From: an uncultured Alphaproteobacteria bacterium
GTDB taxonomy: Bacteria; Pseudomonadota; Alphaproteobacteria; Rs-D84
DNA length: 23,063 nucleotides
Assembly (NCBI GenBank): GCA_944392815.1
Contig: CALXXY010000004.1
Location: forward strand, 1-23,063
Direction: 5' to 3'
The number at the start of each line of letters is the position of its first letter. Position 1 is the first letter of the stretch. The translations under genes and the position numbers were made by a program. A model generated the notes under the pieces. The model was not told the DNA's origin, did not search any database, and saw nothing but the letters and a program-made list of their open reading frames with translations. Positions 6,327 to 20,841 of the stretch are shown piece after piece.

Positions 6327-7473
6327 AAATTTGGACGTACGTGGCAAATATATTTTGCTGCGCGATGATTTTAATGTTCAGATTGTGGACGGCCGCATTA
6401 CTGACGCGTTCAGAATTGAACAGAGTATGCCGACCATACGCGCGTTGCAGGCGGGCGGGGCGCGTATCGCGATTTGTGCGCACCTGGGGCGGCCAAAGGG
6501 TACGCGCAATATGGAATACAGTTTGGCACCGATTGCTGAATATATGAAAATCCCATTGATTGGCGATTGTTTGGACAAAGATTTTATGCAAAACATGAAT
6601 GACGGCGATGTTGTTCTGTTGGAAAATGTGCGTTTTTATCCAGGCGAAGAAAAAAACGACCCTGAATTTGCGCGCAGTTTGGCCGATGGGTTTGATATTT
6701 TTGTGAACGATGCGTTTGCTGTGTCGCACCGTGCGCATGCCAGTACTGTGGGGGTGGCTGAAATTTTGCCGTCGTATGCCGGGAAATTATTGGCGTCGGA
6801 AATAGAACATTTAAATGCTGTTATGGAAAATCCTAAACGGCCGTTGTTATCCATTGTCGCGGGCAGTAAAGTTTCGACCAAAATCGGCGTGTTAAAAGCG
6901 TTGGCGAAATTGTCCGATAAATTGATTATTGGCGGTGCATTGGGAACCACGTTTAATTATGCGTTGGGGGGCAAAGTCGGAAATTCCCTGTACGAGGCCG
7001 ACCAGAAAGATACCGCGCTGGAAATTTTGGAATATGCCCGCGAAAATAATTGCGAAGTTTTGTTGCCACTGGACAAAGGTGTGGCCAAAGAATTTCGTGC
7101 CGACGCCCAGCGCAGCAACAAAGATTTTACCGAAATCGAGGACGACGATATAATCATCGATGCGGGTGAAAAAACGACTGAACGTGATGTGGCGGCCATT
7201 CGTGCGGCGGCAACAGTGATTTGGAACGGAACGGTTGGTATGGCCGAATGGCAACCGACGTGGTCGTATGGGTCGTTTGCAATCGCGCACGCAATTGCCG
7301 AACAAACACGTGCGGGCAAATTGGAAAGCATTGTTGGTGGTGGGGATACCGTTGCCGCGCTGGAGGCCTGTGGGGTCAAAGGCGATATTACATATGTATC
7401 AACCGGGGGTGGGGCATTCCTGGAATTTATCGAGGGTCGCACATTACCCGGCATTGCGGTGTTGGAACAGTAA
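6307..7473 (+). CDS. pgk: Phosphoglycerate kinase
   Basis: RDDFNV, HLGRPKG, LLENVRF, FVNDAFAVSHRAHAS, GSKVSTK, GGGDT, STGGGAFLEF. Confidence 0.97.
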   Translation: MKLRTIENLDVRGKYILLRDDFNVQIVDGRITDAFRIEQSMPTIRALQAGGARIAICAHLGRPKGTRNMEYSLAPIAEYMKIPLIGDCLDKDFMQNMNDGDVVLLENVRFYPGEEKNDPEFARSLADGFDIFVNDAFAVSHRAHASTVGVAEILPSYAGKLLASEIEHLNAVMENPKRPLLSIVAGSKVSTKIGVLKALAKLSDKLIIGGALGTTFNYALGGKVGNSLYEADQKDTALEILEYARENNCEVLLPLDKGVAKEFRADAQRSNKDFTEIEDDDIIIDAGEKTTERDVAAIRAAATVIWNGTVGMAEWQPTWSYGSFAIAHAIAEQTRAGKLESIVGGGDTVAALEACGVKGDITYVSTGGGAFLEFIEGRTLPGIAVLEQ

Positions 7474-7499
7474 AAATGGGACCCGTGGGTCCCATTTTT
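7472..7499. terminator. Bidirectional terminator shared by pgk and Cys-rich paralog 1
   Basis: aaaatgggaccc-gt-gggtcccatttt, abutting both stop codons. Confidence 0.85.
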
Positions 7500-8157
7500 A
7501 TCTGAAGTAGCATGCGCTCTCCTGGGTGTATTCAAATGTGCCGGTGTTGTCAAGACCACCCGTACCTTGGATATAACACCCTTTTAGCGAGGCCGCGTAT
7601 GGGTTTGAATATACCAACATGTATGGGCCGGCGCTATTTTGTGAACCCATGCAATCTTCGCCCATGCCGGCTGTGCCGGTGCAGGGGCAGCATTCACAAA
7701 CATCATAGCACGATTCTGAATTACAGGTCTCGGTTAGGTATCCAGCGTATCCGGGCTTGTTGTCGCTGTTGCAGATTGTGCCACTAGCTCTTACGCCGGT
7801 TTCGTTGGTGCAGGTATCACATGGTCGGTATGTTGCGGCACATTCTACGCGTTGGCCACAGGCGCCACCAGCGACAGTTTGCCAGGTGCCGGTGGTGGTG
7901 GCTTCGTACATGACGAAACATGTACAAGTGCGGATGGTTGGAGTATAACTGGCGTGCCAACTTTCAGCCCCAGCCCAATATAGGCTGCATATGCTGGTGC
8001 ACTCTGACGGGTTGTTGGCCAAATAGCGCTCCGTGGCGTAAAAATTATGTCTAAATGTGCATGTGTCGGCATATGCAGATATTCCGTTTATTGCATACAC
8101 CAAATTCGACACGATTGCCGCCGCAATCATGTATATGAAATTATTTAATTTTTGCAT
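7498..8157 (-). CDS. Secreted Cys-rich variable protein, paralog 1 (219 aa)
   Basis: Start MQKLNNFIYMIAAAIVSNLVYAINGISAYA after a GGGGG RBS. It has 19 Cys by my count and is colinear with 17179-17898. Confidence 0.85.
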   Translation of the reverse strand: MQKLNNFIYMIAAAIVSNLVYAINGISAYADTCTFRHNFYATERYLANNPSECTSICSLYWAGAESWHASYTPTIRTCTCFVMYEATTTGTWQTVAGGACGQRVECAATYRPCDTCTNETGVRASGTICNSDNKPGYAGYLTETCNSESCYDVCECCPCTGTAGMGEDCMGSQNSAGPYMLVYSNPYAASLKGCYIQGTGGLDNTGTFEYTQESACYFR

Positions 8158-8172
8158 TTTATCCCCCAAATT

Positions 8173-8290
8173 GTGCCGAATGCAAACGGTGGATAAAAAA
8201 CGGCAAAAATGCCGTTGACAAAGTGCCGGATTCTGGGGTAAAATACACGCAAGTAAATGCCGAAAATAAAACACCGTTTATATTCGGTAC
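8173..8290 (+). promoter_or_regulatory. Candidate invertible promoter/terminator element, copy 1
   Basis: IR gtgccgaatgcaaacggtgg (8173-8192) and acaccgtttatattcggtac (8271-8290, 16/20 match). TTGACA 8215-8220, N18, TAAAAT 8239-8244 on the + strand. Minus-strand terminator hairpin 8199-8216 with a U-run. Confidence 0.7.
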
Positions 8291-8300
8291 ACTGGGGAAT

Positions 8301-8328
8301 AAAAAAATCCCAGATTTCTGGGGATTTT
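8301..8328. terminator. Terminator-like hairpin between repeat sites B and C
   Basis: aaaaaaatcccag-attt-ctggggatttt: 7 U on the minus strand, only 4 U on the plus strand. Homologous to 18043-18071. Confidence 0.65.
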
Positions 8329-8341
8329 GCAAAAAAAGAAA

Positions 8342-8362
8342 TGCCGAATGCAAACGGTGGAT
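8342..8362 (+). repeat. Third copy of the repeat site (site C)
   Basis: tgccgaatgcaaacggtggat, a perfect 21-bp direct repeat of 8174-8194. Confidence 0.9.
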
Positions 8363-8383
8363 TGGTATCGGCGGGGGGGAACC

Positions 8384-9181
8384 ATGAATAAAATTAATAA
8401 TTTTATGTATATGATTGCGGCAGTGTTTGTGTCGAATCTGGTGTATTTTTTTGGCAATACTGTTGCGCATGCATGGTTCGTAGCAAGTTCGTGCACATAC
8501 GCGTTTTTCCAAACTCGTTCTGTTGGGTCGACTTATTATATTTATGATCGATCCGCTTGCGATTCGTATTGTGATAAGATGTATGGAATTGGTGCCACTG
8601 GCAGATTGAATGTACCCAGTTGTTATTGCTCGACAACTACGGTTGCCACCGGACGTGGGATTTGGGAGTTCGTTGGTATTCCATACGGCACTCGTCTGGA
8701 ATGCGAGGTTGAATATAAACGTAATGCAGATGCCGCAACATTTGCAACGGAAACAATGTATGGTACTGTAAGTTGTGCTGTCGACGCGTACACAGGCAGT
8801 TCCACCGCCATGGCATTTGACGTGAACAAGGGTACATATGATAAAATTATCAGTTCGTGTATAGGGTGCCCCTGTGCCGGTGGCCAGCCCATGTATGAAA
8901 GTTGTTTGGGGTCGCAAAACAGTGCGCCAGGTTCATACATGATGCGTGTCAGCGCAAATCGTGGGGCAACATCTGCGGCCGGTTGTTATGTTGTGGGCAA
9001 TGCATATGACCCCACCGGCCTGTACGAATACACCGACACAGACAAATGTTATTATAAAACTGACACGGGTTTGGTGCCTGGACCTGGAATTACGGTGGGA
9101 CCTGGAATTCCGGTGGGACCAGGAACTGGAACTCCGGGGGGACCGGGTGGTGTCGAGATTGCAAGCTCAATCGTTCCATAA
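8384..9181 (+). CDS. Secreted Cys-rich variable protein, paralog 2 (265 aa, Gly/Pro-rich tail)
   Basis: MNKINNFMYMIAAVFVSNLVY matches the leader of paralogs 1 and 3, and it shares CPC...ESCLGSQNSA...GCY...DPTGLYEYT...CYY. A poly-G RBS lies upstream. Confidence 0.87.
   Translation: MNKINNFMYMIAAVFVSNLVYFFGNTVAHAWFVASSCTYAFFQTRSVGSTYYIYDRSACDSYCDKMYGIGATGRLNVPSCYCSTTTVATGRGIWEFVGIPYGTRLECEVEYKRNADAATFATETMYGTVSCAVDAYTGSSTAMAFDVNKGTYDKIISSCIGCPCAGGQPMYESCLGSQNSAPGSYMMRVSANRGATSAAGCYVVGNAYDPTGLYEYTDTDKCYYKTDTGLVPGPGITVGPGIPVGPGTGTPGGPGGVEIASSIVP
9080..9133 (+). repeat. In-frame 18-bp tandem repeat (GPGITV/GPGIPV/GPGTGT)
   Basis: ggacctggaattacggtg ggacctggaattccggtg ggaccaggaactggaact. Confidence 0.85.
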
Positions 9182-9207
9182 AAAACGGGGCATTGCCCCG
9201 TTTTTTT
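9180..9207. terminator. Intrinsic terminator after paralog 2
   Basis: aaaaacggggca-t-tgccccgttttttt. Confidence 0.85.
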
Positions 9208-9796
9208 AATGACCACCCCGCCGGCATAGCCGGCACCCCTCCGCAGAGGGGAACTTGGCCTTCGTCCCGTCGCGGAACCAGTTCCCCTCCATTGGAGGGG
9301 TGGGCGCAGCCCGGGGTGGTTAGAGATTACAAGAAAGCGCACTTACTCCCCATAACCTGTCATTCCCGCGCCCGGGGCCCAGCACAACAAACACTCTGTC
9401 ATTCCCGCGCAGGCGGGAATAGGGCTGTGGTTGTTAATTAGTTATTTAATTTTGGGAATAATTCTGTGTTGCATTTTTATTTGTCTGAAACCCGCGATAC
9501 GAATTTAATGGACCCTATTCCCGCCTTGTCCACCCCACAAATACATTAGTATTTGCGGGGGCCCCGGGCGCGGGAATGACAGGGGAGAGAGTGCACGAGC
9601 AATAACCAAGCGGAATGCCCACCGCCACACCGGGCCCCGCGCAAACATAGTTTGCGTGGGTGGTTCTGGGGCGGGGGGTGCGGTCGTCAGACCGTCGGGG
9701 GGTGGGGTGCAATGACCACCCCGCCGGCTTATCACCCACGAAAATTGCATTTTCGCGGGGCCCGAAGCGCCGGCACCCCTCCGCAGAGGGGAACTT
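9208..9796. repeat. Mosaic of REP-like palindromic elements (BIME/REPIN-like)
   Basis: ACCACCCCG..CACCCCTCC..GAGGGGAA units at 9208-9256, 9280-9321 (reverse) and 9711-9796. GTCATTCCCGCG..GCGGGAAT units at 9358-9380, 9397-9424 and 9513-9581 (reverse). GGGCCC..CACCC hairpins at 9530-9567, 9632-9663 and 9733-9763. Confidence 0.85.
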
Positions 9797-9811
9797 TGCC
9801 CCGTGTGTGGT

Positions 9812-11116
9812 TTATGCGACCTTTTTCGCGTCGCGCAGTATTTCAACCGGTGGTTTTTTTCCGTCAACCACATCGTGGTCAATTACTATTTCGGCCAAAT
9901 CCGGTTTGTCGGGGGCCGCGAACATTGGTTCCAACAATATGTTTTCCAATATGCTGCGCAGACCACGCGCACCCGTTTTGCGTTCGACCGCACGCCGTGC
10001 AATCGCACGCAGGCCGTCGTCTGTGATTGTTAATTTTACGCCGTCCATTTCCAGCATGGCCGCGTATTGTTTAACTATTGCATTTTTCGGTTCGGTCAGG
10101 ATTTTTACCAATGCGTCTTCGTCCAAATCCTGCAGCGTTGTGACGATTGGTAATCGCCCAACCAATTCAGGAATTATGCCGAATTTCACCAAATCCTGGG
10201 GCTGGACATCGGCCAGGTAATTTTTGGATTCGCGTTCCTGTTTGGATTGGACTGTGGCACCAAAACCTATGCCGGCGCGTTCGTTCGTGCGGGCGCCGAT
10301 GATTTTGTTCAGGCCGTCAAATGCACCGCCACAAATGAACAAGATTTTTGATGTGTCCAATTGAACGGTGGCCTCGCCCGGGTGTTTGCGACCCGCGCCG
10401 CCGGCGGGCACGTTGGCAACGGTGCCCTCGACCAATTTTAATAATGCCTGTTGGACGCCTTCGCCGGAAACGTCGCGTGTTAATGACGGATTTTCGGATT
10501 TGCGGGCGATTTTATCGATTTCGTCGATATAGATAATGCCGCGGCCTGCGCGTTCCACGTCAAAATTCGCGTTTTGCAACAGACGGGTTAAAACACTTTC
10601 CACGTCGTCGCCGACATAGCCGGCCTCGGTCAAAGTGGTGGCGTCTGCGATGGCAAACGGTACGTCCAAAATTCGCGCCAGTGTTTGGGCGAATAATGTT
10701 TTACCCGTGCCGGTCGGGCCAATTAACAACACGTTTGATTTTTGAATTTCAACATTTGTGTTCAGTGCAACGCTGTGGCGTTTGTAATGATTGTATACCG
10801 CCACCGACAATGTGCGTTTGGCGTTGTCCTGGCCCACGATGTATTCGTTCAGGAAATCATAAATCTGGCGCGGTGTGGGCAGTTTTGCTGTGTCGCGGCC
10901 AACCTCGGCCCGCAGGTCGTCGGCCATTATGTCGTTGCACAGGTTAATACATTCGTCGCAAATGCAAACATTGCGACCACTGACCAGTTTTTTTACTTCG
11001 TATACAGCTTTGCCACAGAAACTGCAGAATTGGGGCGGATTATTATTGTCCGCCGCTGTATTCGTTGTGTCGCCATTGGATTTAATTTTATCGTCACTCA
11101 TGTCCATGTCCCCCAC
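9812..11116 (-). CDS. clpX: ATP-dependent Clp protease ATPase subunit ClpX (start may be 11107 or 11101)
   Basis: FCSFCGK...ICDECINLC zinc domain, [19 protein letters not shown] loop, GIGFGA loop. Confidence 0.98.
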
Positions 11117-11127
11117 ATCAGCGATTT

Positions 11128-11709
11128 TTATTTGCGTTTTAATACACCATCAATCAGACCGAAATCTTTGGCCTCGTCCGGGGTCATCCAATTGTCGCGT
11201 TCCATGGCGTCGAACAATTCTTTTTCTTTGCGTCCGGTGAATTCGGCCATTTGTTTGATTAATGTTTTTTTATTTTTTTGGTACTGGGTCATGCGAATTT
11301 CCATGTCGGTGATTTGACCCTCGGCCCCGGCCAGTGGTTGGTGTATCATGATTTGCGTGTTGGGCAATACAAAGCGTTTGCCGTGTTCGCCCGCCGCCAA
11401 TAACACAGAACCCATTGACGCAACCAGTCCCATACCAATTGTGGAAACCGGTGATTTAATATATTGCATGGTGTCCATAATCGCCCAGCCGGCGGAAACG
11501 TCGCCACCCGGGGAATTTATGTACAACGAAATTTCTGCGTTTGGATTTTCTGATTCCAAAAACAACAGTTGCGCAACAACTGTGTTGGCCATGCCGGGTT
11601 CAATTTGTCCGTTAATCATTACGATACGATCGCGCAGCAGGCGCGAATATATGTCAAAGGAACGTTCCCCGCGGGGTGATTCCTCGATAACCATTGGTAT
11701 TAATGCCAT
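11128..11709 (-). CDS. clpP: Clp protease proteolytic subunit ClpP
   Basis: [47 protein letters not shown]. Confidence 0.98.
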
Positions 11710-11778
11710 ATTACTAAATCCCTTGTTTTTCAAATGAAACTATATCATACAAAAACCCGATTCGCGAATTTATCATAT

Positions 11779-11806
11779 ATATAGTGCGCGGCATGCAAAA
11801 TGCAAG
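11779..11806 (-). promoter_or_regulatory. Putative clpPX promoter (alphaproteobacterial CTTG..CTATAT type, possibly RpoH)
   Basis: Minus strand CTTGCA-N16-CTATAT, the same layout as upstream of clpB. Confidence 0.5.
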
Positions 11807-11840
11807 GCGAAGTTAAATAGGGGGCAGGAACAAAGAGTAA

Positions 11841-11869
11841 ATAAAAAACGTCTCAAAAAGAGACGTTTT
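11841..11869 (-). terminator. Terminator after rpmB-tRNA-Leu
   Basis: aaaaaacgtctc-aaaaa-gagacgttttt. Confidence 0.85.
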
Positions 11870-11878
11870 TATCTAATC

Positions 11879-11963
11879 TGGTGGCCCTGGTCGGACTCGA
11901 ACCGACACTCCTTGCAGAACTTGATTTTGAGTCAAGCGCGTCTACCAATTCCGCCACGGGGCC
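11879..11963 (-). tRNA. tRNA-Leu(CAA)
   Basis: GGCCCCGTGGCGGAATTGGTAGACGCG-CTTGA-CTCAAAA-TCAAG, long variable arm, GTTCGAGTC, encoded CCA. Confidence 0.97.
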
Positions 11964-11981
11964 AAAAGGCAGCACAACAAA

Positions 11982-12356
11982 TTATTTTGTTGCGGCTGTA
12001 CGGGCAGCAACCTTTTTCACCAGGCGCGCACTGCGATTTGCCTTGTGCACTGGTTTTTTGGCTGGTTTTTCAACTTTGCCCAATTTTTTATTAATCGCTT
12101 TTTTAATTGCGGCCATTTCCGGCGTTAAACGGGACGGTGATTTTGACATCACATATGCGTCCAGACCACCATGTTTGGTCAATGTGCGCAGCCCGGCCGT
12201 CGAAATACGCAACGAAAAATCGCGATTCAAAACATCGCTGTGAAACTTTAATTTTTGCAAATTCGGCAGAAAAGTACGCTTTGTATGACGTTCCGAATGG
12301 GATACGTTCATTCCAACCATTGTCTTTTTGCCGGTCACTTTACATACACGTGGCAT
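11982..12356 (-). CDS. rpmB: 50S ribosomal protein L28 with a Lys/Ala-rich C-terminal extension
   Basis: MPRVCKVTGKKTMVGMNVSHSERHTKRTFLPNLQ...HGGLDAY, with an AAGGA RBS before 12356. Confidence 0.95.
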   Translation of the reverse strand: MPRVCKVTGKKTMVGMNVSHSERHTKRTFLPNLQKLKFHSDVLNRDFSLRISTAGLRTLTKHGGLDAYVMSKSPSRLTPEMAAIKKAINKKLGKVEKPAKKPVHKANRSARLVKKVAARTAATK

Positions 12357-12513
12357 TTCTAATCCTTTGATAACTGGGGCATAATCTATAATAAAAATCC
12401 GCAAAAGTCAAGGATTGTTTTATTATTTTTTATGCCGCGCAACCCGCGAATTATATCATAAATATTTTTAAAAGTCCAGTTAGATATAAAAATCAATGTT
12501 TTGATTCCTGTAC

Positions 12514-12541
12514 CTTGAAAAACGTCAAAGTGCTACTATAT
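12514..12541 (+). promoter_or_regulatory. Putative clpB promoter (possibly RpoH)
   Basis: CTTGAA-N16-CTATAT. Confidence 0.55.
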
Positions 12542-12571
12542 ATAGGAAAAATACAAAGGAGATTTTAACAC

Positions 12572-14629
12572 ATGAATCCAGAAGAAATGCAAGAAACGCC
12601 CGACCAGGCGATTGCTAAATACACGACGGATTTTACAAAATTGGCGGCAGATGGGAAATTGGATCCTGTGATTGGGCGTGACGAAGAAATTCGGCGCACT
12701 ATCCAGGTTCTGTCCCGGCGCACTAAAAATAATCCGGTGTTGATTGGTAATCCAGGTGTCGGAAAAACCGCAATAGTCGAGGGGTTGGCTGAACGCATTG
12801 TATCCCGCGACGTGCCAGAAAATTTGTTGAATAAAAAATTGCTGTCGTTGGATATGGGCGCGCTGATGGCGGGTGCCATGTTCCGTGGTCAATTCGAAGG
12901 CCGGTTCAAAGCCATATTAAAAGCGGTCAAGGATTCTGATGGACAAATTATTTTGTTCATTGATGAATTACATACCCTGGTGGGGGCCGGCAAAGGCGAA
13001 GGTTCCATGGACGCGGGCAATTTGATAAAGCCAATGTTGGCGCGTGGCGAATTGCACTGTTTGGGGGCGACAACGCTGGACGAATATCGGCAATACATTG
13101 AAAAAGACCCTGCGTTGGCGCGACGTTTCCAGCCCGTCTATGTTGACGAACCGACGGTTGACGATACTATTTCGATTTTGCGCGGGTTAAAGGAAAAATA
13201 CGAAGGTCACCATGGGGTGCGTATTTCTGATGCGGCGTTGGTGGCCGCGGTGCGTTTGTCCAATCGGTATATCACAGACAGGTTTTTGCCGGACAAGGCG
13301 ATTGACCTGATTGACGAAGCCGCCGCGCGCGTGCGTATCGAAATTGCGTCCAAGCCCGACAAATTGGACGAGGTTGATCGTCATTTAATGCAATTGAAAA
13401 TAGAACAACAGGCGCTGAGAAAGGAAAAAGACGAGGATTCCAAAAAACGTCTGGCTGAATTAGACGGCATAATTCGTGAAACAGAAGAAGAATCCAAAAA
13501 ACTGACCGCACAATGGCGGGCCGAGCAGGATAAAATGCGCGCGCTGTCCGATGCGATGGCCGCGCTGGACGCTGCCAAGGCCGAAGTGGCGACCGCTATG
13601 CGCAATGGTGATTATGAAAAAGCGTCCGCGTTGCAATATGGAAAAATTCCAGAACTGGAACAGCAAATCAGCAAAATGAATGCAGATGCACGGGAATATA
13701 AAACTGTGTTGCCTGAACATATTGCGGCGGTTGTCAGCAAATGGACCGGGGTGCCGGCTGATAAATTAAGCATGGAAGAACAATCCAAGTTGCTGAATAT
13801 AGAAGACGAGTTGCGTAAACGTGTCGTGGGCCAGGATCATGCGTTGTCTGTGGTGGCGCGTGCAATTCGACGCAGCCGGGCGGGGCTGTCTGATCCGCAC
13901 AGACCGTCGGGCAGTTTTATGTTCCTGGGGCCGACCGGCGTCGGAAAAACCGAGGTCGCCAAAGCGTTGGCAGAATATCTGTTTAACGATGAAACGGCGA
14001 TGACCCGGATTGATATGAGTGAATATATGGAACCGCATTCGGTGTCGCGCCTGATTGGCAGTCCCCCGGGATATGTCGGATATGAACAGGGTGGGGTGCT
14101 GACCGAAAGTGTGCGGCGCCGCCCGTATCAGGTGTTGTTGTTCGACGAAATTGAAAAGGCCAATCCTGATGTGTTTAATGTGTTCCTGCAGATACTGGAC
14201 GATGGACGTTTGACCGATGGCCAGGGGCATGTGGTGAACTTTACAAACACTATCATCATAATGACCAGCAATTTGCCGGATATGGACGCGGTGAAAAAAC
14301 AATTCCGTCCTGAATTTATTAACCGTATTGACGAAATTGTGTTCTTTAACCCGTTGGGCAAAGATGTCATGGCCGGTATTGTGAAAATCCAGTTGCGCAA
14401 CCTGGAAAATCGATTGGCAGAACGTCGGATTTCGCTGAATGTGTCCGATAAAGCCATTAAATGGTTGGGCGACAATGGGTATGACCCTGTGTTTGGGGCG
14501 CGACCGTTGAAACGTTTAATTACGTCCGCGGTCGAGGATAAAATAGCCGACCTGATTTTGTCCGGTACCGTGGGCGAGGGCAGCACAGTAGTTGTCGACG
14601 TTCATGGCAAAGAATTGACGGTGCAGTAA
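12572..14629 (+). CDS. clpB: ClpB disaggregase lacking the N-terminal domain
   Basis: [30 protein letters not shown], coiled-coil M domain ([10 protein letters not shown]), [21 protein letters not shown]. Confidence 0.93.
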
Positions 14630-14653
14630 AAACGGGGCGTTGCCCCGTTTTTT
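14628..14653 (+). terminator. clpB terminator
   Basis: aaaacggggc-gtt-gccccgtttttt. Confidence 0.85.
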
Positions 14654-14819
14654 ATTATTCCCGCGTGTGCGCGGGAATAATAGAGTGAAGAGTGTAGAGT
14701 TTAGAGTGTAGATGTTGTCCGCGGGCGAACGCCCGCACTTCCTTGTCATTCCCGCGTAGGCGGGAATGACAGAGTGTTTGTTGTGCGGGGGGCGAAGCCC
14801 GGGGTGATAGCCCCGCACA
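14653..14819. repeat. REP-like cluster with a heptamer tandem repeat
   Basis: Palindrome tattattcccgcg..cgcgggaataata at 14653-14682, (tagagtg)-like x4 at 14681-14712, and gtcattcccgcgtaggcgggaatgacagagtgtttgttgtgc at 14745-14786, whose reverse complement matches 9382-9420. Confidence 0.8.
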
Positions 14820-14880
14820 TTCCGTGGCGGTTGAATTCAATGCCACGCATTTGGTGACGGCGGTGGCGGATTGTATGATG
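14810..14880 (-). pseudogene. Remnant of an AVTKCVALNS-family Cys-rich gene
   Basis: Reads IIQSATAVTKCVALNSTATECAG. The 23-mer aatgccacgcatttggtgacggc is identical to 178-200. No start codon or signal N-terminus is present, and the frame runs into a REP. Confidence 0.7.
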
Positions 14881-14882
14881 GA

Positions 14883-16697
14883 TTATTTTTTGTGCGCGCG
14901 TTTGTCCGTTTTAAATTGAATATCACGCAATTTTTTATATTCGCCGTCCAACGCAACCAATTCGGCATCAGTTCCCTGTTCGACGATGTGGCCGTCTTTG
15001 ATAACGCAAATGATATCTGCGTCCAGAATGGTTGACAATCGGTGCGCAATTACGAATGTGGTACGACCAACCATCAAATCATTTAACGCCGATTGAATTA
15101 ATTTTTCACTTTGCGTGTCCAGGGCGGATGTGGCCTCGTCCAGCAGCAAAATGGGGGCGTCTTTTAATATAGCGCGCGCGATTGCAATGCGCTGTTTTTG
15201 ACCGCCCGACAGCAGGGCGCCACCTTCGCCAACTTTGGATTTATATTTGCGTGGGAACGACATAATAAAATCGTGTGCGTTTGCCGCGCGCGCCGCCGCC
15301 TGGATTTGTTCGGGGGTGGCGTTCGGATTGCCGTATTTAATATTATCCTCGATAGTGCCGTTGAACAAGAACACGTCCTGGGATACTTCGGCTATGTTTT
15401 GACGCAGGGAATGCAATGTGAATTTTTTTATGTCGGTATTATTTATTTCTATTTTCCCATGTTGGGGTTCATAAAAACGTTCAATCAAATTGAACATCGT
15501 TGTTTTACCACCACCGGACGGTCCAACCAATGCGCATACTTTGCCGGCCGGCACGTTCAGGTTTATGTCGTGCAATACCGGTTCGCCCGGAATATATTCA
15601 AATGATACGTGATTGAATTTAACCGACATATTGCCAGGTTTTAATTCACGCGCGTCTGGGGCGTCCTGGATATCTGGTTTGCTGTCCAGGAAATTAAACA
15701 GAACCTCGGCGGCGAGTAAACCGTGCTGTACCGTGTTGCCGGTGTTGGTGATGGCCTTGGCCGGTTTATATGCCGCGGTCAGTGCCAGCAGAAATGCCGT
15801 GAAATCACCGGTGGAAATCGCGCCAGTCACAATAAAGTGCCCGCCGATAATCAGTGCCATGCACAGCCCAATCGATATCATTAATTCCAACAATGGCGAT
15901 TGCAGGGCGAATGCCTGGGTGCCTTTGTATGAATTTATCATGGACGAATTCAAAACGCGGGCGAATTTTTCTGTTTCGGAATCCTCGTTCGCGAATGCCT
16001 GGATAGTTTTAATTCCATGCAGGGTTTGGTTTAAATGTTGGGACACGTCGTTTGCAATGCCAAAAGATTCGCGTGATAATTTGCGGCGTTTGCGCATAAT
16101 CAACACCATTGGAATCATGATTGCCGGCACCAGGAACAGCAACACCGCGCACATTTGTGGTGCATAGTACACCATTAATCCCAATGTCATAATCAGTGTT
16201 GCGATTTGCTGGACTGTGTTGATTAACGTGCCCGTCACCAGGTTTAATACCGCGCCCGCCTGGACCGAAAAATAGTTCAAATGTTTGCCAATTCCATCGC
16301 CGTAAAATTTGGAAATGTTCATTTTTACCATGTGGCGATAGATTTTTTTCTGTAAATCGGCACTGGCGTTCAGGCCGGCTTTGGACATAATCAGGGATTT
16401 TGCATAGTTAAATGCGCCCTTGAATCCAAAGGCCGCGATGATTTGCAACCCAAACAGGTAAATGTGCGTCATACTTTTTTGTATAAACGCGTTATCAACA
16501 ACCTGTTGCACCAGGGTGATGGTGTATGCCTCGGCCCCGGCGGCCAGAACCGTCGTGATTACGCCGGTCACCAACCATTTCCATTGCGGTTTGCCGATTT
16601 CGCGCCATACGCGCCCGTACAGTGACCATTTTATGCGGCCGTTGTTTTCGTCGCCGTGGATAAGTTTTTTAATGCTTTTCTTTAATTTTTTAAACAT
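14883..16697 (-). CDS. msbA: ABC exporter with fused TMD-NBD, MsbA-like lipid A flippase
   Basis: About six TM segments, GPSGGGKT, VSQDVFLF, LSGGQKQR, LLLDEATSALD, IAHRLST. Confidence 0.8.
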   Translation of the reverse strand: MFKKLKKSIKKLIHGDENNGRIKWSLYGRVWREIGKPQWKWLVTGVITTVLAAGAEAYTITLVQQVVDNAFIQKSMTHIYLFGLQIIAAFGFKGAFNYAKSLIMSKAGLNASADLQKKIYRHMVKMNISKFYGDGIGKHLNYFSVQAGAVLNLVTGTLINTVQQIATLIMTLGLMVYYAPQMCAVLLFLVPAIMIPMVLIMRKRRKLSRESFGIANDVSQHLNQTLHGIKTIQAFANEDSETEKFARVLNSSMINSYKGTQAFALQSPLLELMISIGLCMALIIGGHFIVTGAISTGDFTAFLLALTAAYKPAKAITNTGNTVQHGLLAAEVLFNFLDSKPDIQDAPDARELKPGNMSVKFNHVSFEYIPGEPVLHDINLNVPAGKVCALVGPSGGGKTTMFNLIERFYEPQHGKIEINNTDIKKFTLHSLRQNIAEVSQDVFLFNGTIEDNIKYGNPNATPEQIQAAARAANAHDFIMSFPRKYKSKVGEGGALLSGGQKQRIAIARAILKDAPILLLDEATSALDTQSEKLIQSALNDLMVGRTTFVIAHRLSTILDADIICVIKDGHIVEQGTDAELVALDGEYKKLRDIQFKTDKRAHKK

Positions 16698-16769
16698 AAC
16701 GCCCTATTATAGGATTTGCGGGGAAATCTGTCCAGTGAAAGATTTTGATCACAATTTTTCATTTTTAAT

Positions 16770-16798
16770 TTGACAATATTGACAAAACTGTATAAAAT
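16770..16798 (+). promoter_or_regulatory. sigma70 promoter for tRNA-Ala/rpsU
   Basis: TTGACA-N17-TAAAAT. Confidence 0.75.
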
Positions 16799-16815
16799 CA
16801 GGGGGCTTTGTTTAT

Positions 16816-16891
16816 GGGGTTGTAGCTCAGTTGGTAGAGCACCTGCTTTGCAAGCAGGGGGTCGTCGGTTCGAGTCCGATCAGCTCCACCA
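16816..16891 (+). tRNA. tRNA-Ala(TGC)
   Basis: GGGGTTGTAGCTCAGTTGGTAGAGCA-CCTGC-TTTGCAA-GCAGG...GTTCGAGTC...CTCCACCA, with the G3:U70 identity pair. Confidence 0.98.
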
Positions 16892-16936
16892 GGAAATTAT
16901 TAACAAAATAAATGCGCCAAAGGGGGTGAAGTACAT

Positions 16937-17143
16937 ATGGTAAAAGTTCTGGTTCGCGATAATAACGTCGAACAGGCACTGCGCGTTGCAAAACGTAAAT
17001 CACAGAAAGAGGGCCTGTACCGCGAAATGAAAGAACGCCAGCGTTATGAAAAACCAACCACTAAGCGCAAGCGTTTAAAAGAAGAAGCCGTGCGTAATGA
17101 AAAAAAACGTCAATCAAAACAACGTATGGTTTTCGGATTCTGA
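16937..17143 (+). CDS. rpsU: 30S ribosomal protein S21
   Basis: [38 protein letters not shown]. Confidence 0.96.
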
Positions 17144-17145
17144 AT

Positions 17146-17175
17146 AAAAAAACACCGCCATCTGGCGGTGTTTTT
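17146..17175. terminator. Bidirectional terminator between rpsU and paralog 3
   Basis: aaaaacaccgcca-tc-tggcggtgttttt. Confidence 0.9.
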
Positions 17176-17178
17176 GTT

Positions 17179-17898
17179 TCAGGGTTTAACAGGAATGCTG
17201 GGGGCAGATGGTAATAATGTATCACTCCAATGGCATTCATTTCCCTGGGTGTATTCAAATACGCCGGTTTTGTCAAAACCACCCGTACCTTGGATATAAC
17301 ACCCTTTTATCGAGTGCGCGTATGGGTCTGAATATACCAACATGTATGGGCCGGCGCCATTTTGTGAACCCATGCAACTTTCGCCCATGCCCTGGCTTCC
17401 GGTGCAGGGGCAGCATGTACAAAAATATGAGCACGATACATTTCCACTGTATGTAATACAGGAACTGGTTTGGTATCCAGCGTATCCGGGGATGTCGTCG
17501 CTGTTGCAGAGTGCGGCACCGGTAGATACGGTGCTGCGTTTGGCGCAGGTATCACATGTTTGGTATGTTATGGCGCACTCATTGCGTCGGCCACAGCCGC
17601 CATATGCGACATATTGCCAGGTGGCGGTGGCGGTGTTTCTGTTTGTGACCATGCATGTGCAACTGCGGTTGGTTGAATTATAAACGGCGCGCCAACTTTG
17701 ACCCATACCGTTCCACATTCTGCTGCATACGCTGCTGCACCCTGACAGGTTGTTGGCCTGGCCACGGCGATCCGTGACGTACGAGTTATATGTATATGTG
17801 CATGTGGCGGCATATGCAGATATTCCGTTTATTGCATACACCAAATTCGACACGATTGCCGCCGCAATCATGTATATGAAATTATTTAATTTTTGCAT
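17179..17898 (-). CDS. Secreted Cys-rich variable protein, paralog 3 (239 aa, short Pro-rich tail)
   Basis: First 30 aa identical to paralog 1, same 19-Cys skeleton, conserved C-terminal block. Confidence 0.87.
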   Translation of the reverse strand: MQKLNNFIYMIAAAIVSNLVYAINGISAYAATCTYTYNSYVTDRRGQANNLSGCSSVCSRMWNGMGQSWRAVYNSTNRSCTCMVTNRNTATATWQYVAYGGCGRRNECAITYQTCDTCAKRSTVSTGAALCNSDDIPGYAGYQTSSCITYSGNVSCSYFCTCCPCTGSQGMGESCMGSQNGAGPYMLVYSDPYAHSIKGCYIQGTGGFDKTGVFEYTQGNECHWSDTLLPSAPSIPVKP

Positions 17899-17913
17899 TT
17901 TATCCCCCAAATT

Positions 17914-18031
17914 GTGCCGAATGCAAATGGTGGATAAAAAACGGCAGAAATGCCGTTGACAAAGTGCCGGATTCTGGTGTAAACTACGCACAAACAAATG
18001 CCGAAAATAAACCACCGTTTGCATTCGGCAC
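17914..18031 (+). promoter_or_regulatory. Candidate invertible promoter/terminator element, copy 2
   Basis: IR gtgccgaatgcaaatggtgg (17914-17933) and ccaccgtttgcattcggcac (18012-18031), 19/20 match. TTGACA 17956-17961, N18, TAAACT 17980-17985. Minus-strand terminator at 17935-17957. Confidence 0.75.
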
Positions 18032-18042
18032 GCGGGGAAATT

Positions 18043-18071
18043 AAAAAATCCCAAAAATCTGGGATTTTTTT
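18043..18071. terminator. Bidirectional terminator (polA on minus, element transcript on plus)
   Basis: aaaaaatccca-aaaatc-tgggattttttt overlapping the polA stop. Confidence 0.85.
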
Positions 18072-20841
18072 ATTTGCCCCAACATTTGCCGATTACATAG
18101 TCCGCGGCCAGGGGAACTGATAATTTTGCGACAGATTCCATGGCGTATTCTATTTTTTTGGCAAATTCATCGGCCACGTTTTCATCGCATTCAAATATGA
18201 TTTCGTCGTGAACCTGCATAATCATGCTGATTTTATTCGCGTTTGGTTCAATAATGTCGCGATTTATATTCACCATTGCGCGCCGCATTAAATCTGCCTC
18301 GAATCCCTGGATTGGGGCGTTGACAGCGGCACGCAGTGCATATGCACGGGTGCGGGGATTTTTAACCTCGGGCAATTCGATTCTGCGACCCCAGGGCGTG
18401 TACACGCATGCGTGTGTGGTGGCGAAATTTTTGATGTATTCGATGTAATCGCGAATTTCGGGCAATCCCGCCATGTACGAATTTATTATTTCCTGGGCCG
18501 CGGGGCGTGAAATTCCCAATTGCCCGGCCAGTCCAAACGATGAAATTCCGTATATGATTGAAAAGTTCACTGTTTTGGCCGCACGGCGCAGGTCGCGCGG
18601 CATAGGCGCGTCCGCCGCGATTCCGAATATCTGGCGGGCGGTTTGTTCGTGAATGTCGTGACCTGCGTTAAAAGTTTCTTTGAACGTGTGGACGTTCGCG
18701 ACGTCCGCCAGCAATCGCAATTGAATTTGTGAATAGTCGGCCGAAATTAATACGCGGCCGGTTGGTGCGATGAAACATTTTCTGATTTCTTCGCCCAGTT
18801 CGGTTTTTATCGGAATGTTTTGCAGGTTTGGGTCGCGGCTGGACAGGCGGCCTGTGTTCGTGCTGGTTTGCAAATAGGTTGTGTGAATGCGGCCGTCGTC
18901 GGCGATTTGCCGCGGCAATGCGTCGGCGTATGTCCCCGCCAGTTTTGCAATTGAACGCCAATTTAGTATTTTTTCAATTACTGGGTGGGCGTCGATTAAA
19001 TCGTTCAGGGTGTCTGCGTCTGTGGAACGTTTTTTGTTCGCGGGCAAATTTAATTCGTCGAATAAAACAGTGCCCAATTGTTTGGGACTGGCGATATTAA
19101 ATTCATGACCGGCCAGGTTCCAAATTTCTGATTCCAGTTTGGTTAATTGTTCGTGGAATACCGTGGATAATTGTGTCAATCCGTTTTTGTTGACCAGCAC
19201 GCCCGTGCGTTCCATTTGCATCAGTATTGGCATTAACGGCAAATCGCAAGTGTCATATAATTCGCGCAATTTTTCGTTTTTGTCCAATTGCGGGCGCATC
19301 AATTTATATAACTGCAGACATATGGTGGCATCTTCGGCCGCATATGGGGTGGCGGCCGCAATGTCCAATGTTTCAAAGTGCATATCTGCGTCGCGTGTTT
19401 TTGGTGGAAACAGTGACGCAAACGATATATTCACATGTGCCAAATATTTTTGTGCCAATTCGTCCAACCCGTGCCCGTGCAAAGTGCCGTGCAGCGCATA
19501 TGAAATCAGCATTGTGTCATCAATTGGTGCGATGTCGCACGTCGGCCAGCCCTCGTTTTCAAAAATGTGCAGGTCGTATTTCAGGTTATGGCCGACCTTG
19601 GTAATATTTTTATTTGTGAAAATCGGCCACAGTTTTTCGCGAACTGTGTTTATGTCCAACTGATTCGGGGCGATTTTGTTTTCTGAAAACAAATCGTCGG
19701 ACGCAGTTATGTGGCGAATGGGAATATATACGCCGTGCGAATCGGTTGTCGCCAGCGAAATGCCGACAACGCGCGCGTCCAATGAATTCAGCCCCGTTGT
19801 TTCTGTGTCCAATGCAATCACGTCTGTGACAGATGATAAAAATTTATCCAGTGCGTCCACTGTTGTGATTGTGTCCGACGTTAATTTTTTGTCGTGCGAC
19901 GGGGTGGCCGGGGCGGGTGTGTCCACATTGCACACGGAACCCGCGAATTCAAATGGCTGTGGTGCGGGGCCGGCGTTAAATTTTTCCATTGGAAATAATT
20001 TTTCAATTTTGGCGGCCAAAGAATTGCTTTCCAATTTTTCACGCACGAAATTCAATGCAGCCGGCGTGTTAAACACAAACGGTGTGATTTTCAGCCCCGA
20101 TAAATCAACGTCTGATTTTAATGTCACCAATTGACGCGAAATGTATGCAGCGTCACGATTGTCGCGCAGCAATCCGCGTATGCGTTCGTTTTTTACATCG
20201 TCCAAATGTTCGTATAATTCGTCCAGCGAACCGAATTGATTGATTAATTCAGCGGCCTTTTTCGGGCCAATACCCGGGACGCCCGGGACATTGTCGGACG
20301 AATCGCCCATTAAACTTTGCACGTCAATGACGCGATTGGGGCCGACGCCGAATTTTTCGATAACCTGGGGCGTGCGGATTTCGCGCTGTTTCATGCCGTC
20401 GTATAAAAACACGCAATCAGACACCAGTTGCATTAAATCTTTGTCACTGGTGATAATGCGCGTCGCGTCGGGGGCGGTGCAGTTTTCGCGTGCCAAAGTC
20501 GCGATGACATCGTCGGCCTCTATACCCGGGATGCACAACACAGGCATGCCCATTGCGGCCACGCCGTCGCGCACCATGTATGATTGCGTGATTAAATCAG
20601 GTGGTGTTTCGGTACGATTGGCCTTGTACGCGGGGTATATATCCTGGCGAAAAGAAATACGCGAAGCGTCAAACACGCAAACAAACGAATCGTTTGGTTT
20701 TGCGTCGGCCAACAGTGGCAACACCATATTAAAAAATCCGTATACTGCGCCGGTTGGTGTGCCGTCGCTGCGGGTCAGTCGACTGTGCACACCGTAATAT
20801 GCGCGGAATAATATGGAATTGCCATCAATCAGCGTCAGCAT
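18070..20841 (-). CDS. polA: DNA polymerase I (start 20841 ATG or 20856 TTG)
   Basis: LIDGNSILFRAYY 5' nuclease, ALDTETTGL exonuclease motif I, TGRLSSRDPNLQNIP, SADYSQIQLR, AKTVNFSIIYG, QVHDE. Confidence 0.98.
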   Translation of the reverse strand: MLTLIDGNSILFRAYYGVHSRLTRSDGTPTGAVYGFFNMVLPLLADAKPNDSFVCVFDASRISFRQDIYPAYKANRTETPPDLITQSYMVRDGVAAMGMPVLCIPGIEADDVIATLARENCTAPDATRIITSDKDLMQLVSDCVFLYDGMKQREIRTPQVIEKFGVGPNRVIDVQSLMGDSSDNVPGVPGIGPKKAAELINQFGSLDELYEHLDDVKNERIRGLLRDNRDAAYISRQLVTLKSDVDLSGLKITPFVFNTPAALNFVREKLESNSLAAKIEKLFPMEKFNAGPAPQPFEFAGSVCNVDTPAPATPSHDKKLTSDTITTVDALDKFLSSVTDVIALDTETTGLNSLDARVVGISLATTDSHGVYIPIRHITASDDLFSENKIAPNQLDINTVREKLWPIFTNKNITKVGHNLKYDLHIFENEGWPTCDIAPIDDTMLISYALHGTLHGHGLDELAQKYLAHVNISFASLFPPKTRDADMHFETLDIAAATPYAAEDATICLQLYKLMRPQLDKNEKLRELYDTCDLPLMPILMQMERTGVLVNKNGLTQLSTVFHEQLTKLESEIWNLAGHEFNIASPKQLGTVLFDELNLPANKKRSTDADTLNDLIDAHPVIEKILNWRSIAKLAGTYADALPRQIADDGRIHTTYLQTSTNTGRLSSRDPNLQNIPIKTELGEEIRKCFIAPTGRVLISADYSQIQLRLLADVANVHTFKETFNAGHDIHEQTARQIFGIAADAPMPRDLRRAAKTVNFSIIYGISSFGLAGQLGISRPAAQEIINSYMAGLPEIRDYIEYIKNFATTHACVYTPWGRRIELPEVKNPRTRAYALRAAVNAPIQGFEADLMRRAMVNINRDIIEPNANKISMIMQVHDEIIFECDENVADEFAKKIEYAMESVAKLSVPLAADYVIGKCWGK

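Follow-up and report, generated by a model that had tools for sequence, protein, structure and literature searches.

How the gene p1, which encodes a cysteine-rich secreted-type protein, might come to be expressed when the promoter upstream of it points the other way is the question raised by this locus of an uncultured alphaproteobacterium. A first-pass annotation of the stretch analysed (the window, 23,063 nucleotides, C4:1-23063) had proposed that this promoter sits in an invertible segment, caught here in its OFF orientation. Our analysis leads us to favour, with a probability of roughly 0.75, the reading of 17916-18029 as an Mpi-type (master serine invertase) promoter inverton. The parts of the locus, in order, are:

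17179-17898, minus strand: p1, a secreted-type protein of 239 aa whose N-terminus forms a hydrophobic leader and which contains 19 Cys (7.9%); the gene that the switch would control
17899-17915, minus strand: short leader with the ribosome-binding site GGGGGA, read from the sequence
17916-17945, no strand: site L1, GCCGAATGCAAAT-GGTG-GATAAAAAACGGC, with core 17929-17932 and central GT 17930-17931
17940-17957, minus strand: hairpin followed by U6, fold -9.1 kcal/mol, z = -5.5
17956-17985, plus strand: sigma-70-like promoter TTGACA-N18-TAAACT, 10/12 consensus positions, now directed away from p1
18000-18029, no strand: site R1, GCCGAAAATAAAC-CACC-GTTTGCATTCGGC, with core 18013-18016 and central AC 18014-18015; 0 mismatches to the pattern
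18043-18072 (approximate), both strands: bidirectional intrinsic terminator, folds -17.7 and -16.1 kcal/mol, z = -4.2 and -3.6

The transcription signals described in the first-pass annotation were all recovered, with the promoter and terminators identified as consensus matches only: the near-consensus promoter directed away from p1, the opposite-strand hairpin, which runs from 17957 to 17940 and is followed by UUUUUU, and the terminator at 18043, which is predicted to be bidirectional. In its present orientation the hairpin-U6 would halt minus-strand read-through into p1, and the terminator is predicted to end both polA (minus strand, stop at 18070) and a short plus-strand transcript from the switch promoter. 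The p1 ATG lies at 17898-17896 on the minus strand, which fits the earlier claim that a gap of 15 bp (17899-17913), containing the ribosome-binding site and no second promoter, separates the repeat from the start codon; the promoter scan listed no promoter-like site on the minus strand between 17898 and 18071. Across the region, promoter-like sites were not enriched (17 versus 18.3 +/- 3.8 in shuffles).

A near-consensus promoter with a strong terminator 60-80 nt further on, and with the R1 hairpin in the transcript, is also what would be expected of a small-RNA gene whose functional product is about 80 nt long (about 17993-18072). No Rfam family was matched there at gathering score, the hits in the window being two tRNAs only, and the NNN positions of the site stems are not kept paired. 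Furthermore, a homologous promoter module precedes a gene on contig C9 and a gene in the related genome G058, and at both loci it reads into the protein gene. We consider a dedicated small-RNA gene very improbable. An RNA of about 80 nt could arise as a by-product of the OFF state.

The recombination sites themselves required a revision of the first-pass description, which spoke of 20-bp inverted repeats. Complementarity at 19/20 positions between 17914-17933 and 18012-18031 was confirmed by reading the sequence, and a repeat search extended the arms to 33 nt at 79% (17914-17946 / 17999-18031), but the functional unit appears to be a dimer-type site, 30 bp long and with a 2-bp crossover, rather than a plain inverted repeat. 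The 20-bp repeats correspond to the outer half plus core of each of two such near-palindromic sites, GCCGAAnnnAAAC-GGTG-GTTTnnnTTCGGC, which stand in inverted polarity 84 bp apart centre to centre, or about 8 helical turns, and enclose the TTGACA-N18-TAAACT promoter. Their central dinucleotides are asymmetric and of opposite polarity (GT at 17930-17931, AC at 18014-18015), and around the centre L1 and R1 have only GGTGG in common. The inner half of L1 is degenerate, with mismatches at 5/20 specified positions. An 18-mer motif, allowed up to 3 mismatches, occurs five times in the window versus 0.08 expected, a count reached in 0/100 shuffles.

An element of the same length had been noted in front of a paralog at 8173-8290. 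It is indeed present, as part of a roughly 830-bp duplication that takes in the paralogous gene as well (8026-8325 versus 17767-18066, 90% identity), and the description can be refined, as the element belongs to a three-site composite switch of two divergent paralogs:

7498-8157, minus strand: p2, a p1 paralog with 61-63% amino-acid identity and 19 Cys
8175-8204, no strand: site L2, core GGTG
8215-8244, plus strand: promoter TTGACA-N18-TAAAAT, 11/12 consensus positions, directed away from p2 and towards p3
8259-8288, no strand: site R2, core CACC, where the inversion joint of run X5 has its breakpoint
8289-8342, no strand: T segment, a hairpin with a U-run that is short on the plus strand (AUUUUGC) and long on the minus strand (U7)
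8343-8372, no strand: site S3, core GGTG, at distances of 84 bp (R2) and 168 bp (L2)
8384-9181, plus strand: p3, a divergent paralog that shares 36-38% identity with p1 and follows downstream of the shared promoter

The fold of the T segment is weak (z about -1.2 to -1.3), and the segment aligns with the polA terminator both ways (32/40 on the same strand, 29/31 as the reverse complement), their relative orientation being ambiguous. Searches of Pfam and NCBIfam gave no match that would assign p1, p2 or p3 to a family, and the Atlas protein search gave no usable match for p1, which has three paralogs in its own genome and matches in 0/60 congeneric genomes.

Scanning the genome and its relatives for the motif bore out the proposal of a dispersed, multi-copy family. 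About seven paired elements with one site consensus, together with single sites, occur in this genome; they are located at C4:8175-8372, C4:17916-18029, C3:106604-106717, C1:39288, C1:69249, C1:138386 and C5:268. Promoter-like hexamers were found within elements, at 8215, 17956, C1:69k, 138k and 39k. At up to 4 mismatches the genome holds 15 sites, versus 2 in three shuffled genomes. Within the genus, sites at up to 3 mismatches were found in 31/61 genomes (2/61 for a reversed-pattern control), and 0/16 genomes from the order's other genera had one at a limit of 2 mismatches.

Pairs were counted by hand from the site lists of 15 congeneric genomes, which gave 44 pairs spaced 83-86 bp, 40 of them with an asymmetric centre. 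The central dinucleotides are reverse-complementary in 39 of these 40 (GT 27, GA 9, AA 2, CT 1), the exception being G017:C17:3523/3608, whose centres do not match. Since 18 of these 39 matching pairs have different outer core bases, identity appears to be needed at 2 bp only, and pairing by identity at the asymmetric central 2-bp overlap alone is what a serine recombinase site would show. The count leaves out G068:C84, where the sites stand 106 bp apart with complementary centres; G006:C4:62062 and G044:C3:20035, where the spacing is 119 bp and the centres, against the polarity rule, are not complementary; and G000:C1:39288/39372, where one site is at chance level with 6 mismatches and the centres again fail to complement each other. 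Also in G017, loci L021 and L025 have a common left flank and opposite site polarity, an arrangement that is not a simple inversion.

Inversion is directly visible at sister elements. The paired elements C1:69249-69362 and C1:138386-138499 stand upstream of paralogous genes, and their left flanks (159/162 identical) and right flanks (111/131 identical) are in the same orientation, with an inner segment (67/69 identical) in the opposite one. Left and right outer half-sites differ, and both are unmoved; only the stretch inside the site centres is inverted. The cores read GGTG..GACC at one locus and GGTC..CACC at the other, a swap predicted by a 2-bp exchange at the central GT. In a contig from another chicken-gut sample (run X5), the segment between the sites at 8259 and 8343, including 8289-8342, is inverted; the joint connects 8280 to 8352 on opposite strands, at a depth of 16.8 and with 81 nt on the shorter side, and its 8 shared letters, CACCGTTT, are the site core. 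Paralogous elements in genome G015 also differ in promoter direction. A single orientation of all copies, together with minus-strand transcription of the gene in the present configuration, had been named in the first-pass annotation as what would speak against a switch; in the C1 pair, the X5 segment and the G015 paralogs the orientation varies.

These breakpoints bear on two other explanations. In the first, the elements are small mobile repeats, MITE or REP-like units with terminal inverted repeats that were inserted either way round. Many near-identical dispersed copies in some genomes (one site sequence stands at at least 17 places in G065) and the frequent proximity of sites to contig ends are consistent with such units, but the C1 pair flips inside its site centres only rather than moving as a block, the element is flanked by no direct repeat in a general repeat search or on reading of the sequence, and the elements occupy fixed positions immediately upstream of start codons. 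We find this origin scarcely credible. In the second, the palindromes are operators for a dimeric transcription factor that loops the 84 bp to repress the promoter, and no programmed inversion takes place. The dyad symmetry of the sites and their spacing by about 8 helical turns suit an operator pair, as does a single site located after a promoter upstream of the C9 gene. Such a pair would leave unexplained the two orientations of the inner segment with breakpoints at the site centres, the reverse complementarity of partner centres (39/40) whose sequence varies among pairs, and the transcription of p1, and we give it very little credence.

For the element upstream of p1, the earlier flip-switch reading was upheld in that sister elements stand in both orientations with breakpoints in the cores, whereas the 17916-18029 copy itself was seen one way only, in the assembly and in one other informative contig. 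The latter, of 3181 nt and from run X6, extends from the promoter, via the R site, into polA in the orientation of the assembly. Among the 15 joints listed, of 23 from four runs, an opposite-strand joint at 17916/18000 was absent; the sole raw-read run, X21, had almost no depth on the organism, and 92% of its mapped reads continue into unlike sequence. A 24-mer taken from the p1 leader and L1 had an exact match in 0 metagenome contigs and so yielded no additional alleles of the p1 locus. Only one of 29 other species (G058) has an element downstream of polA, and as its layout is different, a comparison of orientation at the same locus is impossible. The three p1-type elements (8175, 17916 and C3:106604) all have the same orientation, and in each the gene-proximal site has a degenerate inner half, mismatched at 4-5/20 positions. 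These p1-type elements could be sluggish or locked.

Taken further, the element could be a locked relic, a formerly working inverton in which the inner half of L1 has decayed, so that it now yields only a dead-end transcript and p1 is silent or being lost. The 5/20 mismatches in L1, the common orientation of the three p1-type copies and of the X6 contig, and the poor conservation of the locus (a polA-downstream element in 1/29 other species) would all fit a relic. However, the open reading frames of p1, p2 and the C3 paralog are intact (219-239 aa); their bodies have diverged while their 5' ends and the regions upstream are nearly identical (90% over 300 nt), which would be unexpected for genes that are never expressed. 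The degenerate half is also kept in all three copies, as would follow from its doubling as a hairpin stem, and a neighbouring site pair in the composite locus is inverted between strains. We regard a relic as unlikely, and present flipping of the 17916-18029 copy, as expected of an Mpi-type inverton, as probable.

Consistent with the first-pass annotation, no recombinase is encoded in the window, as C4:1-23063 contains no PF00239 or PF00589 match. The annotation had looked instead to an enzyme that acts in trans and co-occurs with the motif, and a candidate lies on the same contig, 20.6 kb from the element. The gene at C4:38702-39319 encodes a 206-aa serine recombinase. Its match to NF009949, "master DNA invertase Mpi family" (cut-off 272), reaches 308.2 bits (E = 2.4e-92), and in a whole-genome scan 305.1 bits. 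The protein has Resolvase and HTH domains and an N-terminal YGYIRVST motif that includes the serine, and its best solved-structure match is 4m6f, labelled 'DNA-invertase' (E = 9e-15).

Orthologues of this gene (at least 74% identity) are present in 22/60 congeners, and their distribution tracks that of the sites. All 22 orthologue-bearing genomes have at least one site and 17 have at least three, versus 8 and 2, respectively, of the 38 orthologue-free genomes. On a PolA tree of 30 genomes the distribution requires 6-8 gains or losses, and in five sister contrasts more sites are found where the orthologue is present (6 v 0, 17 v 1, 4 v 2, 14 v 0, and 10 or more v 0). The exceptions are G056, with 6 sites and no orthologue found in a genome that is 92% complete, and G013 and G076, which have the orthologue and 1 site each. 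This correlative link points to the Mpi-like protein as the probable switch enzyme.

Other enzymes were considered as well. A second small serine recombinase, split over the ends of contigs C6 and C2, was rejected because it was found in only 5/60 congeners, with identity of at most 60%. A switch of the tyrosine-recombinase kind (fimS/FimBE, Tsr, RecV) was also rejected, the identical 6-8-bp overlap and dedicated enzyme that it calls for not having been found; the four PF00589 genes in the genome are two Xer-sized and two integrase-sized open reading frames, none of them near an element.

From these parts we propose the following mechanism. Each 30-bp site would be built for a recombinase dimer, and the Mpi-family enzyme, acting in trans, would bring two sites into synapsis, cut at the central dinucleotide, rotate and religate, leaving 84 bp inverted. 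In the OFF state, as sequenced, the plus-strand promoter would fire through R1 into the polA terminator, and this terminator together with the internal hairpin-U6 would block minus-strand read-through to p1. Inversion would give the ON state: with the promoter now directed at p1, transcription would begin near 17953 and produce a leader of about 55 nt, and the hairpin would lie upstream of the promoter in a non-terminating orientation. At the composite locus, a flip between L2 and R2 would pass the single promoter from p3 to p2, and a flip between R2 and S3 would turn the terminator-like segment. Across about seven elements the outcome would be that orphan secreted proteins, mostly cysteine-rich and probably exposed at the surface, are expressed in varying ON/OFF combinations. 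At 84 bp, the loop needed for synapsis would be very tight, which counts against such a mechanism.

The first-pass annotation had compared the geometry with that of known invertible promoters, and the sites, the in-trans gene and the dispersed family all agree with the comparison. According to two reports, 13 regions are inverted by Mpi, 7 polysaccharide promoters among them (PMC4747536, PMC10403206). As in Bacteroides fragilis, one small serine recombinase is encoded away from its targets, these are many dispersed promoters flanked by inverted repeats, the genes concerned are likely surface-related genes of a gut bacterium, and the enzyme here lies above the cut-off of the curated Mpi-family model. 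Unlike in B. fragilis, the host is a 0.93-Mb alphaproteobacterium, the cargo consists mostly of orphan cysteine-rich secreted proteins plus one LicD gene rather than capsule operons, and the invertible segment is 84 bp (centre to centre) between full 30-bp palindromes, with one three-site locus. A full-text literature search for a Bacteroides Mpi site consensus gave no match. Given an encoded Mpi-family recombinase and several dispersed promoter segments with one inverted-site consensus, we infer that the switch extends the Mpi kind of Bacteroides to a new lineage and a new cargo.

The gut bacteria of Candidatus Enterousia and the order Rs-D84 are common in farm animals, are uncultured, and have genomes under 1 Mb. 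A literature search that did not extend to the supplements of inverton surveys, including the DeepInverton tables, found no description of the switch in print, and in passages of one Rs-D84 / Candidatus Enterousia genomics paper the words invert, phase variation and recombinase are absent. A broader picture, which we offer tentatively and at somewhat less than even odds, is that this 0.93-Mb genome retains, as a conserved chromosomal gene, a master invertase of the Bacteroides type that probably came from gut neighbours and that runs unusually small, 84-bp switches genome-wide. These would include three-site composites in which a promoter is passed between divergent paralogs and a terminator is flipped, with the central dinucleotides GT, GA, AA and CT serving as addresses that bar cross-recombination, and would produce combinatorial variation of a fast-evolving, species-specific cysteine-rich coat. 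A master invertase and several switches in so small a genome suggest that variation of exposed proteins, for evading host immunity or phages, is central to the lifestyle of the organism, and the orphan cysteine-rich proteins are thereby marked out as likely interface molecules. The switch is compact (84 bp, 30-bp sites), easily testable, and could potentially serve as a small recombinase-addressable genetic switch.

Individual features also recall other systems. Hin, Gin, Cin and Pin are likewise small serine recombinases with a C-terminal HTH, and act on dimer-type sites in which an asymmetric central 2-bp crossover sets polarity; they are encoded beside a single segment of 1-3 kb and require a Fis-bound enhancer, whereas the gene here is 20.6 kb off and the targets are many and tiny. 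The cwpV switch of Clostridioides difficile employs the tyrosine recombinase RecV and a longer segment. R2-T-S3 (8259-8372) and the G058 locus resemble it in having the promoter outside the invertible segment and an orientation-dependent hairpin with a U-run, although the terminator effect here is predicted from a weak fold (z about -1.2 to -1.3). At the sap locus of Campylobacter fetus, inversion switches which surface-protein gene is expressed, and it spans kilobases and proceeds via homologous recombination. The arrangement of one promoter between two oppositely oriented paralogs would match p2 and p3, where the inverting unit would instead be an 84-bp site-specific cassette.

Positions 17898–18071 had been read by the first-pass annotation as a 118-bp promoter/terminator switch, flanked by inverted repeats and lying in the OFF orientation, and its parts were recovered on re-examination. 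The claimed 20-bp repeat arms, 17914–17933 and 18012–18031, are complementary at 19 of 20 positions, and a repeat tool lengthened them to 33 nt at 79% (element 17914–18031). The near-consensus promoter TTGACA-N18-TAAACT is present on the plus strand at 17956–17985, the hairpin described on the opposite strand folds at minus-strand 17957–17940 with a U6 run (-9.1 kcal/mol, z = -5.5), and the terminator placed at 18043 is a strong bidirectional one at ~18043–18072 (predicted fold) that adjoins the polA stop codon. The Cys-rich secreted-type gene p1 (17179–17898, minus strand) starts 15 bp from the arm at 17898, as reported, and a promoter scan listed no minus-strand promoter-like sites upstream of p1, in keeping with the claim that no other promoter serves it. 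Promoter-like matches over the whole region are not enriched (17 versus 18.3 in shuffles), and consensus match is what assigns the predicted promoter and terminator functions. The second element of the same length, at 8173–8290, is also real, and lies inside a ~830-bp duplication that takes in the paralog p2 (7498–8157, minus strand). An 18-mer motif occurs five times in the window with up to 3 mismatches, where 0.08 occurrences are expected and none of 100 shuffles had five.

Comparison of copies across the 927-kb genome modified one part of this description. The repeats stand, but each 20-bp arm consists of the core and outer half of a 30-bp near-palindromic site with the pattern GCCGAAnnnAAAC-NNNN-GTTTnnnTTCGGC. 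Complementarity is not kept at the nnn positions of the half-sites (site alignment and genus site lists), a pattern more easily explained by protein contacts on DNA than by an RNA stem. The genome scan for the motif that the annotation had proposed found a dispersed family of 15 sites with up to 4 mismatches, where three shuffled genomes gave 2, and most are paired at exactly 84 bp.

Sites of the 30-bp family in the source genome (C, contig; C4 carries the window)
C4:17916–17945, site L1, core GGTG
C4:18000–18029, site R1, core CACC
C4:17916/18000, pair (L1/R1), 84 bp apart
C4:8175/8259, pair (L2/R2), 84 bp apart
C3:106604/106688, pair, 84 bp apart
C1:69249/69333, pair, 84 bp apart
C1:138386/138470, pair, 84 bp apart
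C1:39288/39372, pair, degenerate
C5:268/355, pair, 87 bp apart
C4:8343, single site (S3)
C9:6665, single site

Spacing is equal between the sites at 8175, 8259 and 8343, and their polarity alternates (GGTG, CACC, GGTG); the gene-proximal site of all three p1-type elements has a poor inner half. Upstream of the window gene at 3–263, a GGTTTATTCG stretch and CCACC/GGTGG hairpin remnants (264–460) resemble a decayed site. Many sites are also close to a contig end, at a distance of a few hundred bases or less (for example G017:C3:114, G015:C12:58, G042:C37:10 and G069:C5:167 in compared genomes, and G000:C5:268 in the source genome), which would agree with assemblies breaking at switches that are repeated or heterogeneous.

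Evidence for inversion came from sister elements. At each of two paralogous loci on C1, an element follows a small gene for a Cys-rich secreted protein; their left (159/162 identical) and right (111/131) flanks are collinear, and the inner segment matches as reverse complement only (67/69). The promoter, TTGACG-N17-TATAAT, points away from the gene in one locus and towards it in the other. The outer half-sites, left unlike right, are unchanged in position, and the core sequences are GGTG..GACC at one locus and GGTC..CACC at the other, as expected if strand exchange took place at the central GT and carried the fourth core base along with the inner segment. Contigs of three other chicken-gut sequencing runs and reads of a fourth were mapped on window 7000–19000. 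Run X5 yielded a contig, of depth 16.8 and with 81 nt on its shorter side, in which 8280 is joined to 8352 on opposite strands, and the 8 letters fitting both sides are CACCGTTT, the core of R2 and S3. Since only these 8 core letters are shared, a fold-back in k-mer assembly was ruled out and the R2–S3 segment is inverted in the X5 strain. Paralogous loci in a compared genome, G015, have near-identical right flanks and promoters in opposite directions. Both orientations were thus seen for these sister elements, and one orientation only for the 17916–18029 copy; the material compared was Logan contigs, which drop minor variants, and a raw-read run of low depth. An X6 contig that runs over the promoter, R site and polA has the orientation of the window, as do X2 and X5 contigs for the promoter of the 8.2-kb locus.

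Across the genus, the site pattern was found with up to 3 mismatches in 31 of 61 genomes (reversed-pattern control, 2/61); with up to 2 mismatches it was absent from the 16 genomes that represented other genera of the order. Counted by hand from the site lists, 44 pairs lie 83–86 bp apart, start to start, in 15 genomes, a count that includes paralogous, non-independent copies. It leaves out one pair at 106 bp with complementary centres, two at 119 bp with non-complementary centres, and C1:39288/39372, one site of which is at chance level. Centres are self-complementary in four pairs (GC three times, TA once); 39 of the remaining 40 have reverse-complementary central dinucleotides (27 GT-type, 9 GA-type, 2 AA-type and 1 CT-type, with the GA type alone in six genomes), the sole exception being G017:C17:3523/3608. 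As the outer core bases are non-complementary in 18 of the 39, a match is needed at the central 2 bp only. Serine recombinases leave a 2-nt overhang and so follow a 2-bp match rule; tyrosine recombinases need a 6–8-bp overlap. Judged from the site sequences, the pairing rule is that of serine recombinases, unlike that of tyrosine recombinases.

Profile searches (PF00589, PF00239) bore out the statement that the window encodes no recombinase, and gave four PF00589 and six PF00239 matches genome-wide. One is a 206-aa ORF with Resolvase and HTH domains at C4:38702–39319, on the same contig and 20.6 kb from polA. Against NCBIfam NF009949, "master DNA invertase Mpi family serine-type recombinase" (curated cut-off 272), its score is 308.2 bits, and its best solved relatives are labelled DNA-invertase. 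Of 201 Alphaproteobacteria sampled only 4 pass the cut-off of this model, and of 14 control genomes only 1. Orthologues (≥74% identity) occur in 22 of 60 congeners, mostly on the polA contig, and in the closest relatives ~20 kb from polA. The suggested co-occurrence of a recombinase with the motif was evident: all 22 orthologue-bearing congeners have at least one site and 17 at least three, versus 8 and 2 of the 38 others. On a PolA tree of 30 of the compared genomes, 8 orthologue changes are needed, at least 6 of them forced by well-supported branches, and in five sister contrasts the orthologue side is richer in sites (6 v 0, 17 v 1, 4 v 2, 14 v 0 and at least 10 v 0). Exceptions are G056, with 6 sites and no orthologue found, and G013 and G076, in each of which the orthologue is accompanied by a single site. 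The genome's second small serine recombinase, a Hin-sized gene cut by two contig ends (C6:2–412, C2:216031–216255), is sporadic (5/60 genus genomes).

Another Mpi-like ORF, C1:214620–215144, possibly a dead or truncated copy, scores below the cut-off (200.8 bits). About 35 residues are missing from its start, among them the catalytic serine region, and its neighbour is a 393-aa tyrosine integrase (C1:212884–214065). Of the congeners that lack the orthologue, most have one or several small serine recombinases that are 44–54% identical to the C4:38702–39319 product and might serve switch families based on different site sequences.

As sequenced, p1 would be OFF: its promoter would read rightwards via R1 into the polA terminator, and minus-strand read-through from polA would be stopped first at that terminator and then at the internal hairpin-U6. 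Exchange at GT (17930–17931) and AC (18014–18015) would invert 84 bp, leaving the promoter facing p1, with a start near 17953 and a ~55-nt leader (hand-computed, predicted coordinates), and the hairpin on the promoter's upstream side, oriented so as not to terminate. At 8175–8372, the same promoter would now read through the hairpin towards the paralog p3 (8384–9181, plus strand); the U-run there is short on the plus strand (AUUUUGC) and U7 on the minus strand, with weak z-scores. Inversion between L2 and R2 would redirect the promoter to p2, and inversion between R2 and S3, the orientation in X5, would present the stronger predicted terminator. Downstream of polA in compared genome G058 the layout is promoter, site, 53 nt, site, gene.

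The products of p1, p2, p3 and a paralog on C3 have hydrophobic N-termini and 11–19 Cys, and match no family in Pfam or NCBIfam. No match to p1 was found in 60 congeners, including a species with a 94% identical PolA fragment. Other-strain contigs cover the p1 and p2 bodies (window 17426–17826 and 7401–7801) far below their neighbours (X5 depth 4.5 against 15–30, for example), and several join pieces of different paralogs, which suggests fast divergence or gene conversion. A second Cys-rich family, of 145-aa proteins with 10 Cys, is the one at the C1 loci and has six members; one of the six, 58% identical to the C1 genes, lies at window 3–263 (minus strand), where the window begins inside the gene. 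Further elements stand in front of a lipoprotein-like gene on C5, a gene for a secreted protein on C9 and a LicD-family gene. The last of these elements, C1:39288–39401, is degenerate and has two sites; its TTGACG-N17-TATTAT promoter reads into the LicD-family gene (39398–40387), whose product would take part in surface-glycan decoration.

In its working the switch system resembles the Bacteroides Mpi system (PMC4747536, PMC10403206), and the enzyme model groups it there. It differs in host lineage, in cargo, in a segment of only 84 bp, in sites that are full palindromes and in one locus being a three-site composite. We put at about three in four the probability that 17898–18071 is a real, well-built predicted promoter inverton of the Mpi kind, which would place such an inverton in a new lineage. 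Full-text searches found no paper on Enterousia inversion or Rs-D84 phase variation, and the main text of the Enterousia genomics paper is free of 'invert', 'phase varia' and 'recombinase'; inverton surveys (PMC11602134) make wide predictions that include Alphaproteobacteria.

The window holds further repeats, namely AAAAACGGGGC..GCCCCGTTTTT terminator-like palindromes and TGTCATTCCCGCG..CGGGAATGACA units, in families at 9172–9206, 14619–14653 and 2123–2157, and at 9356–9420, 9559–9583 and 14743–14803. Contig depth rises at least 10-fold over 9005–9806 and 14619–15019 in all runs, and there are many small indels and joints between strains. In another alphaproteobacterial family, locus L073 (G129:C5:2500–7500) encodes a 198-aa Mpi-like invertase, 67% identical to the C4:38702–39319 product. 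Next to it lie two hsdS genes of a Type I restriction system, in opposite orientations and with a perfect 342-bp inverted repeat in common; within the repeat is a stretch that agrees with the 30-bp site pattern at 3 mismatches. The locus resembles a shufflon of specificity genes operated by the same enzyme family.
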